Sequence record: NC_101835.1
From: a phage
Reading direction: 5' to 3' (one strand)
DNA length: 64,000 nucleotides
A program made the position numbers and the translations under genes. Numbering within the stretch: position 1 is the stretch's first letter; every line of letters starts with the position of its first letter. Shown here in pieces: positions 26,529-41,264 of the stretch. The notes beneath the pieces were generated by a model. The model was not told the DNA's origin. It was given only the letters and a program-made list of their open reading frames with translations, and did no database searches.

Positions 26529-26556
26529 AAAAATGCCCCACCCTTTCGGGCAGGGC
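26529..26556 (-). terminator. rho-independent terminator
   Basis: Minus strand hairpin GCCCTGCCCGAAAGGGTGGGGC then TTTTT; identical copy at 38270-38296. Confidence 0.6.
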
Positions 26557-31929: not shown

Positions 31930-32205
31930 CAATAGTTCAGGTAGGTCGTTAAGCTACCCCGCACCATTACGTGCATAGCCATACGTTTTCACGTAGGATC
32001 GGACCATCTCATATTCCTATGATAAGCAACCACAGGAATCCTCCCATTTCGACCGCACTTGCTGGTCTACTTCCTTTCGGAATGGCCTCTGAGCGTTCGC
32101 TCTTTTGAGCGCTTCGTTGCGGATTACCTTGCCATAAGGTTTAGGCTTCCCGCAGTTAAAGAGGTTATTCGACATAGATTACTCTATGAAGCCACAATGT
32201 TATTT
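31930..32205 (-). other. putative group I self-splicing intron in DNA polymerase gene
   Basis: 276 nt between ..YYH and DE..; 5-prime exon ends in U, intron ends in G; GUGG near intron start can pair with exon CCAU; P-like AACUGCGGGAAGCC and Q-like AAUCCGCAACG; GAAA-capped hairpins. Confidence 0.5.
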
Positions 32206-34629
32206 ATGGTAATAAATAATACGACGAACACCTTCATCGTACCACCCACGCTTCACCATTTGGTGGTGCATAAGTATCCCAACCAAGTCACACAGCGATG
32301 CACCACCATTCTGTTGATATGCATTAAGTAAAGAGTGTTTAGATCGGGTCCAGATGGCATGACCATCAAAAGAGTAGATAAACTTCTTACCCGTTGCTTC
32401 CCAGAATTTCTCCAGATCCTCTTTACGGCCCTTAAGACCAGGGTTGGCATCCCAAAGCGCATCGATTACCCTTTGTCCCAACTCTGGAGAGATGTCCAGC
32501 ATATCTGCAACTTTATCTTTTTGTGCCCCGTACATAACCCCATACGTGATAGGTTTACCGTCGTTACGGGACACCTCTCTACCTGCTACTTTTGTATATG
32601 CCTCAGCATTGTTTTGGTGTGCGTCCCCGTTACTTACAACATCGTAATACAGGCCGTTGTCGAACTCAAAGGCACCCCAAGCCCCGATAAGCTGCTCTAA
32701 GTTGGACCCGTCAATACCGATCTCAAAGTATCCCGGAGGAACACCCCACAGACTACGCATCTCTTTACCCATAACCACTTTAGGAGATGGTTTAGGCATG
32801 TTTGCACAAATACTGTGTTTCTGTCTGGAAGTGTTTGTTAATCCAGAGCTTTTAGCAGGAAGCTTATGGTCAATCTTCAAACGTGGGTGATTAAGAAGAC
32901 CAGTGTCAACCTTATCCTCCTTGATTGGATCAAGTACCGATCTGCGGTTTCGCAATGATAACCATAAGACGATATCTTTAGCCATCTCTCCGTTCAATTT
33001 TTCAAGATTCGGACACAGGTGTCCAAACGTATCTTTCAGTTGCGGAGAAGTAATAAGTGCCCTAGCTTTTCTACGTATTTTCCCGAATACTTCCTTTTTA
33101 ATCCTTTCGGAGTTAGGAAAGCTTCGGAACTTGTGCACTGTTGTCTGAAACTTAGCATCAGTTTTGTTCCAGAAGTTGATAATTAGGTCACAATACTCTG
33201 ACTCTAAAAGCTCGTCCATGTATGCATATACTCGTGCATCAACATCTGCATCAGGTAGAGCTTTCTTCTTGCTGTCTTTAGTTACATCCTTAGTTCTCCA
33301 CATTGTCGGAAGCCAACCAGCACTGATCAGGTATCGCTTAATGTCGTCCTGATTGCTGATTTTCATAGGTATCTTGCAGTCAGGCATTCGCTTCTGCTGC
33401 AGATCGCTTATTGCCTGATCCATCAGCTCTTTAGGCAAAGGTTGTGGTGTGGAGGTGCCCTTAATATAACCTCTCAAGAAATCAGCCATCTTGTCGGGGT
33501 CTTTGCAGCCCATCTCTTCACACCATTTTATCCCCATCTTACTGACATCTCCTGTGGAGGTAAATGCTCTCTTAGGCGGGGCTTTGAACTCTAGAGCGCT
33601 CATGTCTACAGGATAGCCAAGCTTATCTTTTAACCATTTCCAACCATTATTAGAGATTGTCCCGTCTTGGTTAAACGGCTTTTCAGGGAACTTGGGCCGC
33701 TGAGACATTGACAGCTCTTTTAAAGGCAGTTGTGGTTCAACACGATCAGCGATTTCTTTCATCCACGCATCGCAACGGTCACGTAAAGCAATAGCTCCAT
33801 CTATGTCGAAGTATACACCCTGACGGGCCTGCAGCTCCATCAGGAAGTGCTGCAGCATGCCTCGACGTAATGCGTTCTTCCAGGTGATCTTCTTGAACCC
33901 TTTCGGCTTCTCTTTGGCAGGATCGTACATAAAGTTCTGCATGTCAGATTTGCCGTAGAATACACCTTTTGATTCCGCTACCAGTTCTTTCCAGAGCAGC
34001 TCCTGGATGATAACGTCCTCAAATACACGATCCACATACTTCCACAACGGAAGATCGCGCCAGTCATCAATTTGAACTTTCTGGTTACCAAGGGCATAGC
34101 CCCATGCCATAAGGCCGTGGGGACCAACAGGCTGCATTTTCTTAGTAACCGGGTTGAATACAGCGTCCGGACAACCTTTTGGTAAAGGGCGATCAGGCCA
34201 CAAGATTCGGCTCATCGCCAACGTATCAAACAGGTTAACCTGGTGGTCGTTGATAGTCCCCATGCATTTAGGATCACGGAACATATCAAAATGAATACCG
34301 GATAATCTTTCCATCAGCATAAAGTCATAACTGTAGCAGTTATGGCAGTTCAAAGCTGTTGGTGACCAGTCGGAATTGCCTGTAAGCCAACCTTCCAACT
34401 CCGAAAAATCTGCTATGCGAACTTCAAAACCTTTATAAAGAGTTTTCTTTGCCAGAATGAAGTTCTTAGCCTTTTCTATATCCTCCTCGGAGTAGTGTGT
34501 GCGGTCATTTAGAGGAAGGAACAGCATAAAACGGTTCTTATTCAGCTCTTTAAACAGGCCGCAGTGATAATAAAGATCTGGATCTTCCAAAAGCCCTGAG
34601 GCCTCCAGATCGAAGCACCAATTACTCAT
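32200..34629 (-). CDS. DNA polymerase (family A, T7 gp5-like), N-terminal 808 aa / putative exon 1
   Basis: N-terminal FDLEASGL..HCG exonuclease motif like T7 gp5; motif A region IGIDGSNLEQL; motif B KPITYGVMYGAQ; ORF stops at ..RIIYYHK, i.e. at motif C. Confidence 0.85.
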   Translation of the reverse strand: MSNWCFDLEASGLLEDPDLYYHCGLFKELNKNRFMLFLPLNDRTHYSEEDIEKAKNFILAKKTLYKGFEVRIADFSELEGWLTGNSDWSPTALNCHNCYSYDFMLMERLSGIHFDMFRDPKCMGTINDHQVNLFDTLAMSRILWPDRPLPKGCPDAVFNPVTKKMQPVGPHGLMAWGYALGNQKVQIDDWRDLPLWKYVDRVFEDVIIQELLWKELVAESKGVFYGKSDMQNFMYDPAKEKPKGFKKITWKNALRRGMLQHFLMELQARQGVYFDIDGAIALRDRCDAWMKEIADRVEPQLPLKELSMSQRPKFPEKPFNQDGTISNNGWKWLKDKLGYPVDMSALEFKAPPKRAFTSTGDVSKMGIKWCEEMGCKDPDKMADFLRGYIKGTSTPQPLPKELMDQAISDLQQKRMPDCKIPMKISNQDDIKRYLISAGWLPTMWRTKDVTKDSKKKALPDADVDARVYAYMDELLESEYCDLIINFWNKTDAKFQTTVHKFRSFPNSERIKKEVFGKIRRKARALITSPQLKDTFGHLCPNLEKLNGEMAKDIVLWLSLRNRRSVLDPIKEDKVDTGLLNHPRLKIDHKLPAKSSGLTNTSRQKHSICANMPKPSPKVVMGKEMRSLWGVPPGYFEIGIDGSNLEQLIGAWGAFEFDNGLYYDVVSNGDAHQNNAEAYTKVAGREVSRNDGKPITYGVMYGAQKDKVADMLDISPELGQRVIDALWDANPGLKGRKEDLEKFWEATGKKFIYSFDGHAIWTRSKHSLLNAYQQNGGASLCDLVGILMHHQMVKRGWYDEGVRRIIYYHK

Positions 34630-35360
34630 ACTGTCTCCTCCTGTGTCTTCTCAGCATTCTTTCTTGCAGCTATTGCATCGTCCCTGTTCTTGAAATACCC
34701 AAGGCATTTCCTTTTACCATCTACATAAATTCTGGCTACCCATCTTTCATGGGTTTTATCCCAATTCACCCCTGAGCAACCGCTGGTGTTATTATACTGC
34801 ACGGCTCTTCCACTCTTGTGCGAAAAACCATTATCTTCGAAGAACTTTCTTGCCCACTCTGCCTCTTCAAAAGTTCTGTACTGGCCTAGCCAGACCCTTT
34901 CACCTACAGAGTCTGTGCCTTGAGCTACCCATGCCCCTCTTTCTTCAGAATAGTGCACCCCGACCCTGCCAGATTTGTTGTTGCTACGAGGTATCTTGCA
35001 ACTTTTCTTTTTGTTATCTGTAGGTTCGAGTAGTTGCAAATTTTGAATACTGTTGTCAGCCACACCACCTGTTTCCCTTATCTCCTTGATGTGGTCAACC
35101 TCATACCCTTCCGGTACAGGACCGTTAAACATTTCCCAGATTATAACGTGGGCACCTTTAGTGCAATGCTTTCCTAGACTAACCACAGGCCTGCCATCAG
35201 CATCTTGCCCCTTGTCAGCTCTGGAGCCTGCTGAAGTTTTAACATATCCTACACCGCTGCCTGCCAGAATGTCTATCTTCCAAAAAAGATTTTGACCGTC
35301 ATACTCCAATATTTCTGACCACAAGTGATTAGCTACACAGTGATCTCTGAACTCGTTCAT
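34626..35360 (-). CDS. HNH homing endonuclease with two AP2 domains
   Basis: HNH core GYEVDHIKEIRETGGVADNSIQNLQLL..N; AP2-like repeats SGRVGVHYSEERGAWVAQ and SGCSGVNWDKTHERWVARIYVDGKRKCLGYF; stop overlaps polymerase start. Confidence 0.75.
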   Translation of the reverse strand: MNEFRDHCVANHLWSEILEYDGQNLFWKIDILAGSGVGYVKTSAGSRADKGQDADGRPVVSLGKHCTKGAHVIIWEMFNGPVPEGYEVDHIKEIRETGGVADNSIQNLQLLEPTDNKKKSCKIPRSNNKSGRVGVHYSEERGAWVAQGTDSVGERVWLGQYRTFEEAEWARKFFEDNGFSHKSGRAVQYNNTSGCSGVNWDKTHERWVARIYVDGKRKCLGYFKNRDDAIAARKNAEKTQEETV

Positions 35361-35418: not shown

Positions 35419-37497
35419 TTAAAAAGGCGTTTCATCATCCTCAAAACCAGGGACCGGGTCAGAGGATGGATCATCGTACTGGAGGTCTTCCTGCGTGTCA
35501 ACAGGCTTAACAGTAGGAGTTACAACCTTATCAGCCACAACCTTGCCCATAGGTGTTTCTACAACTGCATGCTCCTGATCCTCAAACATAGCCTGAGGTC
35601 TCCAAACAACCTCCCCACCTTCTCCGTCTGTAAACATTTGCATTTCTTTGTCCCAGTACCAATTACTGGCATCATGGAACTTACCTGTATGTGGGTCCAT
35701 AACTAAAGTGTCAGCAATACCTAAAGTTTTTGCTGGACGGTTTTTAAGACCTACCAGACGGACACGCCCACGAGAACGATCCACCATTTCTTCGGCCTCG
35801 ACACCTATGACTACCCAACTCAACTGTTCAAGCCCAGCCGATCCTCGCAAATTCTCTTTTCGCACAGGATACCAGAAAGGTAATGGGTTACCATCCTTGT
35901 CCTTAGGGGGCACAATCTCTGTACGTTTGAGGTGAGCGATCACCAAGATAAACACGTTAAACTGCTTACAAAACGCAGCCAGCTGAGTCATAGCCATGTC
36001 CAGTTCTTTTCGCTCATCTTTAACATTAAGCCCTGAAATTACCATAGACAGGTGATCCAGCACAATATAGCGACAATGGTACAGGCAGACCATTTGCTTA
36101 AGCTTGGTAATCAACTCGTCCACTGGAATAGACCCGAAATGTTTGAACACTTTGATTTTTCCAGCTTTTGCCCATGATTGGTGAATCTCTGCATGTTCTT
36201 GATCAGTTAAAAACTGGCTAGGATCTTCAACAAACTCTTTAACATCAAACCCTAACTGGTTTGCATACAAGGAGTTAATTGCTTCCTCTGGGTCCTCCTC
36301 AAGATGAATCATGCATAGACGATCATCCTCTTCGTAGTCATCGGCCTTTGGACATGTCGGGTCCATTAGGTATCTTGCAATACAGTGTTCCAGTTTTTTG
36401 GCTACAGTTGTTTTACCACCTCCTGATGGACCTGTAAGCATTACGAGTGTCCCTTTGTGCAAGCCTTTTAGCATTTTTTGCAGTTTTGGAAACTCTGCGC
36501 TGATATCTACCCCGTTGGAAGTCTTTTTCCGCAAAGATTCGATAGAGAAGTCTTCTAAATCCGACACAGCATCAGGCACATACTTAACAGGATGCCGGAA
36601 CATGTTTACAATATCTTCCAGCTTTTTAGCCTTCAGCATGTCACGGATATCTTTTACACCATCAGGGTCGTTTACCTCGCCAGGATATTCCACGTGGTAA
36701 ACGTTGTCAGCCATCAAAAATGCTGCAATATTATGTGTGGCTTCAACACCTTTGATAACGTGTTTTTGCTTCTCTACCTCGTTAGCCGCATCGTTGTCCA
36801 TTGCAAGGACCACTGTTCCGTAGCTACGGATAAATTTCTCATTGTTTGCAAAAGTATCTACTGCGTTTGCACATCCACAGTTAATTCCAACAAAAGGTAG
36901 GCAGGGTTTTCCTGCCAGATCACCCCCGTTGATAACTGCATCGATCCCGTCCTGGACCTCTTTAGCCCACTGTTTCACCTTTGCCGGGGCTTTAGCGTTG
37001 GTGAGAATCCCTTTTACTTGTATCTGATATGCAGCCTGCCATGCTGCAATAACATCACCTTCCCCCTCACAAACGTTAATCTGCTTACGGTTGTTAGAAG
37101 ATGCACACAGCTTTTGCCCAAACATTTGGGAGTTAGCCTTTACGATCCCAACCGTCGTAAAGTGCCCACGTTGCTCTTTGGGGATCGTCCAGTCACGCTT
37201 TTTGAAACCGGACAGATTCCCGTAGCGGTCGTAATATGGGAAATATGTTGCAGTAACTGTCACACCGTCTTCTTGGGACAATGCTGATCGCACACCAAAA
37301 TATTGTGCAGCCATCAGACCGATATTTTGTTGTGGGACAGGGACGATTTTAGTATTTTCTAAAACAGTCTCTACAGTTTCAACTTCTTTTTCATCACGAT
37401 AGTCTCGTTTCACACTTCCCCCACTTTTATACTTAGTTGCTTTCGGGTTTGGCTCACCGAAACGGTTGTATGCAGATGCCATAAATTTACTTCCCAT
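35419..37497 (-). CDS. bifunctional DNA primase-helicase (T7 gp4-like)
   Basis: TOPRIM residues CEGEGD and VLAMDNDAANE; Walker A LTGPSGGGKTT; Walker B YIVLDHL; acidic C-terminal tail ..FEDDETPF. Confidence 0.85.
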   Translation of the reverse strand: MGSKFMASAYNRFGEPNPKATKYKSGGSVKRDYRDEKEVETVETVLENTKIVPVPQQNIGLMAAQYFGVRSALSQEDGVTVTATYFPYYDRYGNLSGFKKRDWTIPKEQRGHFTTVGIVKANSQMFGQKLCASSNNRKQINVCEGEGDVIAAWQAAYQIQVKGILTNAKAPAKVKQWAKEVQDGIDAVINGGDLAGKPCLPFVGINCGCANAVDTFANNEKFIRSYGTVVLAMDNDAANEVEKQKHVIKGVEATHNIAAFLMADNVYHVEYPGEVNDPDGVKDIRDMLKAKKLEDIVNMFRHPVKYVPDAVSDLEDFSIESLRKKTSNGVDISAEFPKLQKMLKGLHKGTLVMLTGPSGGGKTTVAKKLEHCIARYLMDPTCPKADDYEEDDRLCMIHLEEDPEEAINSLYANQLGFDVKEFVEDPSQFLTDQEHAEIHQSWAKAGKIKVFKHFGSIPVDELITKLKQMVCLYHCRYIVLDHLSMVISGLNVKDERKELDMAMTQLAAFCKQFNVFILVIAHLKRTEIVPPKDKDGNPLPFWYPVRKENLRGSAGLEQLSWVVIGVEAEEMVDRSRGRVRLVGLKNRPAKTLGIADTLVMDPHTGKFHDASNWYWDKEMQMFTDGEGGEVVWRPQAMFEDQEHAVVETPMGKVVADKVVTPTVKPVDTQEDLQYDDPSSDPVPGFEDDETPF

Positions 37498-38250
37498 TAA
37501 TTCTGCTCCTTACTACAGGCTCGTTTGCTAAGAATACGGCTTTTGCCCAGCCACGTGGTGTGAGGCTTCGGATCATCTTCGTTCTTGCACTCTTTCCACC
37601 CAGCTTGGCGTGTTGCATGGAATACCCGCTAACCGCGTCAACTATTTGCGGGACAGGTTTTGTGGCCGGGATTATAAATCCATTACCTATCCAGCCGCAA
37701 GTTATTTTTGGATAGGCATCACGTGGAGCTATAAATTCAGGAAACCAAGGGTTTACATCATCCTCCGGTAAATACCCTCCATAGTCAGAAGGATGAAAAC
37801 GGTAATCAGGTTTGCGCCACAGTGTGGACATAACACCAACAGGATTCTCTACATGCCACGGGCAATCGTAAATCTCTCCCAGCTCTTCCGCAACCCGAGC
37901 ATCCTTTACAGCATTAATTTGGATCATGGGGTCCTTAGCCAGCTTTTTCTTAAAATGTGCAGCACCTGATACCGCTAAATGCGTGCACGGAGGAAATGCA
38001 AGAATAAAGTCTGGGGCTGGGTACATGCAAAAAGTTTCCTGAGGGAACCATGGGTCAATCCAATAATCCACATAGTGGATGTTGGGATGATCGGTTATCA
38101 CCTCTGCATAACTGCCGTGATCAGCACCTTCTGCATTGAAGCATAGGCACAGGTACCCAGCTTTTGCCCAGTCAATGACTGCACCACCAGACCCGTCAAA
38201 TAGACTCCACACAACACCTTTGTGGTAGTGTTCTTTGTAGATAAATTTCA
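37487..38250 (-). CDS. C5-cytosine methyltransferase-like protein
   Basis: FDGSGG (motif I-like), FPPCTHLAVSG (PC motif), WHVENP (ENV-like) in canonical order; start placed at TTG after AGGAGA because the track GTG start sits inside the terminator. Confidence 0.45.
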
Positions 38251-38269
38251 ATTTGCTGTCTCCTAATGC

Positions 38270-38296
38270 AAAAAGCCCCACCCTTTCGGGCAGGGC
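38270..38296 (-). terminator. rho-independent terminator
   Basis: Second exact copy of GCCCTGCCCGAAAGGGTGGGGC + TTTTT (minus strand). Confidence 0.6.
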
Positions 38297-38302
38297 CTAG
38301 TG

Positions 38303-38785
38303 TTAAACCCGGATACCTATTGTATACTCGGTGGATACCAATGTCAAATCTAAATTTAAAATTTCTTGCATCTCATAGTATGCGTCCAGGGTGAGATACA
38401 TTTCCCCATCCTTTTCTACATACTTGTCCAAGTGCTTGAGGCATTTCGGATAACTATCGAGCGCAGCTTTCAGACACTCAAACTCTGTGCTGTTGATGAG
38501 TCCTTCCATCTTGGCTACCCGTTCTGGGGTAACGATAGCACTGTAGTGAGATTTAGCTTCCTGAATGCAATGGGTCCAAGCATCAACTTTCTCTTCGAAA
38601 AGTCCGAAGAATTTCTTTTTGGTGAGCTTCAGATTCTTTAAGTGCTTAAGCACTCGGTTGCCGATCACAGCCACATCACGAAACTTAAGGATCACTTTGT
38701 CGATATCTTCGCGACCTATTTTCACAAAACAGGCCTTACACATTTCAGGGGAGGAATAACCAACTTTCCACATAAAATCTGACAT
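38303..38785 (-). CDS. hypothetical protein
   Basis: AAGGAGAGGGTGGT before ATG. Confidence 0.5.
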   Translation of the reverse strand: MSDFMWKVGYSSPEMCKACFVKIGREDIDKVILKFRDVAVIGNRVLKHLKNLKLTKKKFFGLFEEKVDAWTHCIQEAKSHYSAIVTPERVAKMEGLINSTEFECLKAALDSYPKCLKHLDKYVEKDGEMYLTLDAYYEMQEILNLDLTLVSTEYTIGIRV

Positions 38786-39495: not shown

Positions 39496-39555
39496 CGTTT
39501 AGTGCTTCCTTAGTTTTTGTGGGGAGGAGTGCCTCCCCTTTAGACTAACATCTTA

Positions 39556-39897
39556 CTACTGAAGGTCTTCAGAGTCAAGCTCAAAAAGAATCAAACTGTG
39601 CATGCCTGCAGAGAGATCAACGCACCCTGCAATAATAAGGGTCTGATAGTAAGGTTCAGCACCATCAATGTCTTCGTTAAAATCTACAACAAGATAGTCA
39701 CCTTTGTTAAAGGTGTATTTGTCCGATGTAAACGCAAAACCTACCCAGTCCCCTACTGCAGGATCTTTATCAGTCACCTTTGTTAGCAGTAGATCTTTTT
39801 CACGAGATCTTTTAGTAAAATCGTGAATCACAACATCCTTCTCTTCAGGAGTTGGATTGCCGCACACGTAGTTAACTATATTTCTCCACAAACTCAT
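39556..39897 (-). CDS. hypothetical protein
   Basis: AGAGGGGGA RBS; coupled to helicase gene. Confidence 0.5.
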   Translation of the reverse strand: MSLWRNIVNYVCGNPTPEEKDVVIHDFTKRSREKDLLLTKVTDKDPAVGDWVGFAFTSDKYTFNKGDYLVVDFNEDIDGAEPYYQTLIIAGCVDLSAGMHSLILFELDSEDLQ

Positions 39898-41264
39898 ACG
39901 TCCCCCTCTTCGGCTCTGGTTTCAAAATCTTTCCTGACAATTTTGTCTAAGTCAGGGAATGTTGTATTGTAAAACTCTACGACTCGCGGGTCAACAATAA
40001 TGTCAACTTCTCTTAGTGGACGCAACAAGTTTATTCCTTGTATTGTCTTAACTCGACTCAAAGCAACATACGTCATCCCCGGAGAGAAAGCTCCGTTCTT
40101 TCCAAGGTCTAGGTTGTAACAATCTAGCGTAAGTCCTTGACTTTTATGAGATGTTACGGCGTACCCAGATTTCAGAGGAAGTTGCTTGTATGACCCAATC
40201 ACTACCCTCTCTATAAACTTCTCCATCTTCCTTTCTGCAATATTGTATCTCTGAGAGGGCTTATACTCGTTATTCTCCCACAACCTCTGCTCTATGTCAA
40301 CCTGTGTTCCATCTTCAAGCTCTACCACCACCGCCTTGTTCTTAAATTTAACAATTGTGGCACGTGTTCCGTTAACATAATAAGGTACTTTGTGCGTCGG
40401 GTCAACATCGTTGGCGGTTATCATAACTTTCATGCCAATTTTCAACTTCATCTCCTGCTCAACTGGCAGGGTGGAGGGAAACTTACCCTTCATTTCACCA
40501 GTGTATACCTTCTCTGGGGCGTTGATGGCATCATAGAACCTTCTGTTTACTTCCTCTGCTTGTTTGTTGGTGGCGCAAATTGTGAGAGCATCTGTTGGTA
40601 CACCACCTTTGTAACAGCGAGCATTAAGTTCTGCTACAACCTCTTTTATGCGACGACCCTCACGAACACAGTTGAGCATTGTGGCAAATCGAATAGACTC
40701 CTGTCGGAACTGATCTATTAGGGCTATGTTGTGGAGGTCAAGCTCTTTCCAAGATTCGGTATAGCAACACAGGTCCGTATGGTAGAAGTTGAAGTAGGCT
40801 TCCTTCTCCATAGAAGAGACAACAGGAGGTGCCTGGTAAAAATCGCCAAACAATATGACCTGTATGCCCCCGAAAGGTTTGTCATTTTTTCGAAGGAAGC
40901 GGAGTTTCCTATCCATCTCTATAAACTTATCAGCACGAATCATAGAGATTTCATCGATAATTAGGATGGTAAATGCCTTGCTTTTCAAAGGCTTTGCTGT
41001 TTTTGCCCTTATTGCGGTCCAGTCCGACTCCATGCTCACACCTGCTGCAAGATCGAAGGTTCGGTGTGCTGTTGCTCCATTAACGTTTAAAGCGGCTACC
41101 CCTGTCGGGGCAACCGTTATGCAAGAGTCTCCATACATTGACTGGATCATGTTGATGAGGTACGTCTTCCCACAACCTGCGGGTCCTGAAACGAAGACAT
41201 TCTCACCGCTCATGATTGCAACGAGGGCAGCATCTGTGCCTACATCATACTGCCCTTTTTCCAT
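39894..41264 (-). CDS. SF1B DNA helicase (Dda/Pif1/RecD-like)
   Basis: Walker A SGPAGCGKTY; Walker B LIIDEISM; C-terminal YAVTSHKSQGLTLD motif. Confidence 0.8.
   Translation of the reverse strand: MEKGQYDVGTDAALVAIMSGENVFVSGPAGCGKTYLINMIQSMYGDSCITVAPTGVAALNVNGATAHRTFDLAAGVSMESDWTAIRAKTAKPLKSKAFTILIIDEISMIRADKFIEMDRKLRFLRKNDKPFGGIQVILFGDFYQAPPVVSSMEKEAYFNFYHTDLCCYTESWKELDLHNIALIDQFRQESIRFATMLNCVREGRRIKEVVAELNARCYKGGVPTDALTICATNKQAEEVNRRFYDAINAPEKVYTGEMKGKFPSTLPVEQEMKLKIGMKVMITANDVDPTHKVPYYVNGTRATIVKFKNKAVVVELEDGTQVDIEQRLWENNEYKPSQRYNIAERKMEKFIERVVIGSYKQLPLKSGYAVTSHKSQGLTLDCYNLDLGKNGAFSPGMTYVALSRVKTIQGINLLRPLREVDIIVDPRVVEFYNTTFPDLDKIVRKDFETRAEEGDV

Follow-up and report, generated by a model that had tools for sequence, protein, structure and literature searches.

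Locus and gene boundaries

The window analyzed here, a 64,000-nucleotide (nt) stretch of phage DNA (sequence record NC_101835.1), carries on its minus strand a gene whose 254-residue product is very likely a compact S-adenosylmethionine (SAM)-dependent DNA cytosine-C5 methyltransferase from a widespread phage family of short Dcm-like proteins (phrog_757). By nucleotide comparison, the window is an rV5-like Vequintavirus genome (E. coli phage), because a 2-kb stretch around the gene shares 98.9% identity with Escherichia phages vB_EcoM-Pr121LW, MiataMamis, and LL12 and 97.4% with rV5 itself (116 phage records matched overall). Orthologues in the public record include rV5 gp226, LL12_214 (CPT_LL12_214), and Murica205 (CPT_Murica205); their product is named "DNA (cytosine) methyltransferase", with some records still giving "hypothetical protein", while the BASEL Vequintavirus genomes JeffSchatz, CarlMeissner, and MaxTheCat annotate it as "Dcm-like C5 cytosine methyltransferase". 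The gene is, in other words, already annotated and a member of a known family with experimental support. The coding sequence (CDS) and its translation signals are as follows.

37487-38251, minus strand: methyltransferase CDS, 254 amino acids (aa) plus TAA stop (open reading frame, 765-nt CDS in public records, phrog_757 match)
38249-38251, minus strand: TTG start codon (sequence, homologous starts in relatives)
38259-38264, minus strand: Shine-Dalgarno sequence AGGAGA, 7 nt 5′ of the TTG (sequence; the LL12 and Murica records place a ribosome-binding site here)

The open frame runs from 38296 down to the TAA at 37489-37487. A preliminary description of this DNA had treated 38296 as the annotated start, but that position is a GCC codon directly after an in-frame TAG (38299-38297), and the first possible start is a GTG at 38281, followed in frame by a TTG at 38251 and a GTG at 38212. 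Sequence comparison supports the TTG (38251-38249) as the translation start: the 765-nt CDS of rV5, LL12, and Murica is annotated from the homologous TTG, and a homologue with 80% identity, encoded on the metagenomic contig L008, has a GTG at the homologous codon, 8 nt after an AGGAGG, with the N-terminus MDFIYKD in place of MKFIYKE. No hairpin is present upstream of the start of that homologue. In a second homologue, 79% identical and encoded on a 137.5-kb contig (L007), a GGAGGG precedes an ATG start that lies slightly further downstream, closer to the first conserved strand. The preliminary description had also preferred the TTG and had noted the AGGAGA ahead of it (38264-38259); both points hold, although its coordinates for the TTG, 38248-38250, were one base off.

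The two GTG codons were rejected as starts. The one at 38281 lies within the 3′ arm of a hairpin, lacks a Shine-Dalgarno sequence, would add ten residues that have no counterpart in homologues, and is used by none of the public annotations examined. The one at 38212 would truncate strand beta-1 at its beginning, a part that all homologues conserve. The TTG start, the ribosome-binding site, and the terminator upstream are all present in public annotation.

Family membership and predicted structure

The protein matches the phrog_757 "DNA methyltransferase" profile with E 5e-87, residues 2-251 aligning with profile positions 5-226 of 247. A tblastn search returned 1,505 phage records, including Escherichia, Klebsiella, Salmonella, Shigella, and Vibrio phages, many of which are annotated as encoding a DNA cytosine methyltransferase; a large protein collection contained 3,555 homologous clusters at 90% identity, and an exhaustive profile search yielded 2,063 clusters at 50% identity. 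Nearly all of the best 150 of the latter are 200-260 aa long and match end to end, so a length of 254 aa is the norm of the family: the size given in the preliminary description was correct, but shortness is not the oddity it was taken for. No report on "short C5" phage methyltransferases came up in a literature search.

Relationship to the canonical C5 methyltransferases becomes visible through the homologues. The query itself has no PF00145 hit (gathering score, 22 bits), but 20 of 28 homologues match this family at E≤1, and three of six that were rescanned exceed the gathering score; these (P0055, P0071, and P0072) reach 24.7-28.5 bits over profile positions 4-94, which span motifs I-IV. 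A phmmer search of the query against the Protein Data Bank (PDB) gave sub-threshold matches only, while profiles built from the family matched DNMT3B, HaeIII, Dnmt2, and CmoX, weakly (E 0.02-0.3) and over the motif I-IV region only.

An AlphaFold model computed from the family alignment (predicted local distance difference test, pLDDT, 88; predicted template modeling score, pTM, 0.88) contains seven strands alternating with helices in the class-I methyltransferase order. In Foldseek comparisons with the PDB, the best matches are almost all DNMT3A, DNMT3B, or DNMT3C, together with one prophage C5 methyltransferase (E down to 1.5e-6), and the nearest viral models are phage "DNA-cytosine methylases". 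The C5-methyltransferase relationship that had been proposed from motifs is thus upheld by the phrog_757 match, by PF00145 in the homologues, and by 54% identity to the KarlJaspers Dcm described below, and the profile and fold searches together place the protein inside the SAM-dependent methyltransferase superfamily.

Conserved motifs

Four sequence motifs of the protein are considered in what follows.

38183-38200, minus strand: motif I, FDGSGG, residues 18-23, the loop following strand beta-1 that would bind SAM (aligned by HMMER with motif I of DNMT3B and HaeIII)
37964-37996, minus strand: motif IV, FPPCTHLAVSG, residues 86-96, with catalytic Cys89 at 37987-37985 (aligned with the PC of HaeIII, DNMT3B, and Dcm)
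37841-37858, minus strand: motif VI, WHVENP, residues 132-137, with Glu135 at 37849-37847 (conservation; equivalent to E128 of the phage K42 Dcm)
37550-37570, minus strand: C-terminal motif RSLTPRG, residues 228-234, at the entry to the last helix (family conservation)

The reading of FDGSGG, FPPCTHLAVSG, and WHVENP as C5-methyltransferase motifs I, IV, and VI, as first suggested from the sequence, is borne out in both content and spacing: F18, C89, and E135 are separated by 71 and 46 residues, and their counterparts in E. coli Dcm (F93, C177, and E224 in the MG1655 genome) by 84 and 47. The PPC of motif IV (residues 87-89) also aligns with the PC of Dnmt2 and CmoX. Across 71 homologues sharing 32-80% identity with the query, P87, C89, G96, K103, E135, N136, P137, P154, Y180, W187, and P195 are invariant, and at least 90% of the sequences have T90, R146, K182, R228, S229, P232, and G234. 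Among the closer homologues, conservation of the glycine-rich motif I is also good. The T found after the PC dipeptide, where Q is usual, had been pointed out in the preliminary description. The substitution is real, but T occupies this position in at least 90% of the family (occasionally D, E, N, or V) and is therefore its norm.

The C-terminal part is less orthodox. The RxR of motif VIII is absent; Lys182, within YPK[K/I]T, lies 47 residues past the Glu, where Dcm has QHRER at +50. The family motif RS[LA]TPRG[FW]AxAV resembles motif IX of Dcm (RRLTPRE; RRLTPRECARLMGF), yet it leads into the last long helix, the place of motif X in canonical enzymes, and a nonsignificant HMMER alignment to CmoX (score -2.5) likewise puts it on motif X.

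Experimental precedent

The closest experimental precedent comes from a preprint on phage K42 (bioRxiv 10.1101/2023.08.16.553469), the result of which later papers quote as established; the genomes of K42 and KarlJaspers (Bas06) share 95.4% identity. In all four K42 escapers of retron Ec86, a 711-bp "Dcm" gene was affected by lesions, either within it or immediately upstream, and expression of K42 Dcm was toxic only in retron-carrying cells (bioRxiv 10.1101/2023.08.16.553469). According to mass spectrometry coupled to liquid chromatography (LC-MS) in the same study, 5-methylcytosine (5mC) in the multicopy single-stranded DNA (msDNA) of the retron was high with wild-type K42 Dcm and low with both a C82A/E128A/K175A/K176A mutant and the empty vector; K175 and K176 were treated as substrate-binding residues.

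The corresponding 711-bp "Dcm-like C5 cytosine methyltransferase" of KarlJaspers (MZ501090) is 54% identical to the window protein over 235 residues (E 2e-86), and the alignment equates C89, E135, and K182 of the window protein with C82, E128, and K175. A relative whose activity depends on these residues bears on another reading, in which the window protein is a catalytically dead methyltransferase fold that the replication module uses for DNA binding or regulation. The failure of the query to match Pfam and its truncated architecture, in which a clear motif X is missing, would suit such a protein. Against this, the nucleophile Cys, the Glu of ENP, and neighboring residues are invariant in all 71 homologues, implying strict selection, motif I is well conserved in the closer ones, and the 54%-identical homologue is active; a dead fold is consequently considered unlikely.

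Genome context

The gene lies in a replication module, as judged from a Pfam scan of its neighbors across 32.2-41.3 kb. A PIF1-like helicase (39894-41264) and four small ORFs that match nothing in Pfam lie upstream of it, and a DnaB-like primase/helicase, an HNH-AP2 endonuclease, and DNA polymerase A lie downstream. The immediate downstream neighbor is

35419-37497, minus strand: DnaB-like primase/helicase, ATG at 37497-37495 (Pfam)

and its start shares 11 nt with the 3′ end of the methyltransferase gene, an overlap that suggests translational coupling of the two genes and expression alongside replication. In two proteins of uncultured Caudovirales represented in BFVD, A0A6J5SE15 (1,397 aa) and A0A6J5NPY6 (1,126 aa), the short methyltransferase fold occurs as an internal domain with 23-26% identity; one of the two is named "Helicase/UvrB, N-terminal", which echoes the adjacency of methyltransferase and helicase genes in the window.

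This context, taken with the biochemistry of K42 Dcm, helps to weigh two further possibilities. The first is an RNA (tRNA cytosine-C5) methyltransferase like Dnmt2. It is highly improbable: DNA methyltransferases score higher, the gene sits among replication genes, and the characterized homologue methylated the DNA part of msDNA (bioRxiv 10.1101/2023.08.16.553469).

The second possibility is a transferase for a non-methyl group, such as the carboxymethyl that CmoX takes from carboxy-S-adenosylmethionine (Cx-SAM); its reaction would start a cytosine hypermodification. CmoX has a PPC motif too, and Arg replaces in it the Asn304 of HhaI; Arg228 and Arg233 of the window protein are conserved near the C-terminal helix, and the very weak HMMER alignment sets them near the position of the CmoX Arg. 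Cx-SAM is made in E. coli via CmoA. That alignment to the CmoX C-terminus is nonsignificant, however, the motif reads FPPC and not SPPC, and no CmoA, CmoY ligase, or ParB-like partner was found among the neighbors at 32.2-41.3 kb. In addition, the K42 homologue yielded 5mC in cells by LC-MS (bioRxiv 10.1101/2023.08.16.553469), and the high restriction sensitivity of Vequintavirinae argues against hypermodified DNA (PMC8594841). Transfer of a non-methyl group is thus very unlikely, and the "variant nucleotide-modifying enzyme" that had been offered as an alternative finds no support.

Activity, specificity, and biological role

Family, fold, conserved catalytic residues, and gene boundaries are what the analysis shows; for the rV5-type orthologue, we infer activity, target sequence, and biological role as follows. 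Following the canonical C5-methyltransferase reaction, SAM would be bound by the FDGSGG loop and an acidic or polar residue after strand beta-2. The target cytosine would be flipped out, Cys89 of the PPC loop would attack C6, and Glu135 of the ENP motif would contact N3/N4; the methyl group would then be moved to C5 and the enzyme freed by beta-elimination. Translation would proceed from the TTG with its AGGAGA, directly after the terminator-like hairpin. The most likely outcome would be methylation of replicating phage DNA, and incidentally of host DNA, at a short motif, for which CCWGG is a candidate by analogy. Such methylation would shield the phage against restriction enzymes recognizing the same site, making an anti-restriction role plausible by analogy, and it could expose the phage to methylation-sensing defenses such as retron Ec86/Eco1.

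Several observations weigh against this assignment or against parts of it. Pfam and NCBIfam scans of the query protein gave no useful match, only a chance SCO4226-like hit (E 0.11), and sequence likeness to canonical enzymes is limited to motifs I-IV. Alignment of the family to E. coli Dcm with hhalign is not significant (probability <1%), so that motifs VIII-X have no residue-level mapping to Dcm. The gap from K182 to R228 is about 45 residues, compared with 126 in Dcm; of motifs IX and X just one can be recognized, with no separate GN motif X following it; and K176 of K42 Dcm corresponds to Ile183 in the window protein. With respect to K42 itself, the CCWGG specificity was assumed from E. 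coli Dcm, not measured, and the dcm+ host MG1655 alone showed low msDNA methylation when the phage enzyme was missing (bioRxiv 10.1101/2023.08.16.553469). Finally, Vequintavirinae were reported to be exceptionally susceptible to the restriction-modification systems tested in the BASEL study (PMC8594841), so any protection by methylation must be narrow, and no cytosine methylome of an rV5-like phage was found in the literature searched; a study of Bas51 mapped adenine methylation only.

A further reading is an active DNA C5 methyltransferase that is not a CCWGG Dcm but has a different or relaxed site, or prefers single-stranded, hairpin, or replication-fork DNA. Such a specificity or substrate preference would follow from a minimal target-recognition region and from coupling to the primase/helicase, and it is possible, if not the expected outcome. 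The recognition region is about 80 residues shorter than that of Dcm, the gene overlaps the primase/helicase start, related domains are fused in the 1,100-1,400-aa uncultured-phage proteins mentioned above, one of them named a helicase, and the substrate of the K42 enzyme was an msDNA hairpin. The low methylation of msDNA in the dcm+ host means either that msDNA is inaccessible to host Dcm or that the specificity of the short phage enzymes is not simply for duplex CCWGG. On the other side, mutation of the msDNA CCTGG abolished Ec86 defense against K42 (bioRxiv 10.1101/2023.08.16.553469), which is the sole support for CCWGG. Avoidance of CCWGG in the window is not strong, with 125 sites where 155 are expected (ratio 0.81); this is compatible with protected sites but does not discriminate between specificities.

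Extending this argument to the family as a whole, the 200-260-aa proteins might all be minimal C5 methyltransferases that have lost the canonical target-recognition domain and one of motifs IX/X, with a specificity other than CCWGG. DNA recognition would then be unorthodox, for example through a DNMT3-like oligomer, or on replication-fork or hairpin DNA handed over by the adjacent primase/helicase. We put this forward only as a tentative proposal; if true, it could explain why retron msDNA is highly methylated by the phage enzyme but not by host Dcm.

Separately, several 6-bp palindromes are strongly avoided in the window when both strands are compared with a maximal-order Markov expectation (observed/expected): GGCGCC 0/12.8, TGGCCA 0/19.8, CGATCG 2/17.5, and GGGCCC 6/18.3. 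CTAG has a ratio of 0.44, and neither GATC (1.01) nor CCWGG is avoided.

Upstream hairpin, promoter-like site, and other features of the locus

Between the upstream gene and the methyltransferase start lies a hairpin that recurs elsewhere in the window, preceded by a promoter-like site.

38273-38298, minus strand: intrinsic-terminator-like hairpin of 11 pairs with a GAAA loop, then a U tract (folding, annotated terminator in relatives)
26535-26556, minus strand: second exact copy of the 22-nt hairpin core, then AAGGAGA and ATG (sequence)
38319-38347, minus strand: putative sigma-70-like promoter TTGACA-17-TACAAT, 11 of 12 positions matching, located within the 3′ end of the gene upstream; "P231" of rV5 (sequence match)

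The hairpin follows the TAA stop (38305-38303) of an upstream 160-aa gene and encloses the spurious GTG at 38281; the 71-nt stretch containing it folds with -22.8 kcal/mol, and the Murica, EdH4, and Alma records annotate it as a "terminator". The window contains exactly two copies of the 22-nt hairpin core, GCCCTGCCCGAAAGGGTGGGGC (38275-38296 and 26535-26556), with 0 expected by chance. The preliminary description had reported an exact copy of a hairpin at 26529-26556, which is accurate for the 22-nt stem-loop; once the flanks are counted in, the two copies disagree at 2 of 28 positions. The 137.5-kb contig retains both elements, with TTGACA-17-TATGAT at 2901-2929 and the hairpin at 2953-2976, in which one G-U pair is replaced by G-C. 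The order of promoter-like site, hairpin, and Shine-Dalgarno sequence is therefore kept there despite a methyltransferase that is only 79% identical. The hairpin may act as a leaky terminator or as a 5′ stabilizing stem-loop. A transcript from the putative promoter would start about 14 nt ahead of it.

Other observations concern the neighboring genes and the public records. A 244-aa homing-endonuclease-like ORF with HNH_3 and AP2 domains (34626-35360, minus strand) has the primase/helicase gene on one side and the DNA polymerase A ORF (32200-34629) on the other, and in the LL12 record polymerase A is an intron-interrupted gene in two pieces. The rV5 RefSeq entry labels ORF 235 a "methyltransferase" (resembling the amino-terminal part of an adenine methylase from Azoarcus); it corresponds roughly to 39512-40837 in the window and overlaps the ORF at 39894-41264 (minus strand), which Pfam identifies as a PIF1-like helicase (E 1e-32), in agreement with the LL12 annotation. 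The older label for ORF 235 thus looks wrong. About 16 records titled "Campylobacter phage" with Campylobacter jejuni as host (MG065644, MG065690, MG065662, MG065672, MG065682, and others) are 97-100% identical to the window sequence and are probably mislabeled or contaminant assemblies.

Significance

For the window itself the significance is small, as the gene, its start, the ribosome-binding site, and the terminator are publicly annotated and a member of the family has experimental support. More broadly, phage cytosine methyltransferases can protect phage DNA from restriction and are a reported signal sensed by retron Ec86/Eco1; knowing whether rV5-like phages have an active copy, and what its specificity is, would help to predict which restriction systems and retrons these phages are sensitive to. 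With its unusually small members, the family might also serve as a minimal scaffold for work on target recognition by C5 methyltransferases.

Comparison with known systems

CmoX of Synechococcus phage S-B43 (PDB 8yf3), a C5-carboxymethyltransferase, is a larger protein of 372 aa with the full motif set, including SPPC and Arg350, and its gene is accompanied by those for CmoA and CmoY; neither the SPPC motif nor the partner genes were found here (FPPC in the protein; neighbors scanned across 32.2-41.3 kb). The catalytic domains of DNMT3A and DNMT3B (about 285 aa) are only 12-14% identical to the window protein and belong to eukaryotic, oligomeric enzymes with regulatory domains. Compared with E. 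coli Dcm (M.EcoKDcm, 472 aa, CCWGG) and the PF00145 enzymes HhaI and HaeIII, the window protein lacks the N-terminal extension of Dcm and has T, ENP, and Lys where canonical C5 methyltransferases have Q after PC, ENV, and the RxR of motif VIII. Its motif VIII-IX interval is about 45 residues, compared with about 126 in Dcm, and a separate GN motif X is missing.

The nearest characterized system is the Dcm of K42/Bas06 (236 aa), the trigger of retron Ec86/Eco1, which has in common with the window protein the family, the architecture, the PPC Cys, the ENP Glu, the Lys, and the C-terminal RSLTPRG. It comes from a Drexlerviridae siphovirus, whereas the window gene comes from a Vequintavirus myovirus and encodes an N-terminus 7 residues longer. 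Within the Vequintavirus group, the orthologues of rV5, LL12, Pr121LW, and the BASEL Vequintavirus are 97-99.6% identical to the window protein and share its CDS ends, ribosome-binding site, and terminator, so that essentially no differences separate them.

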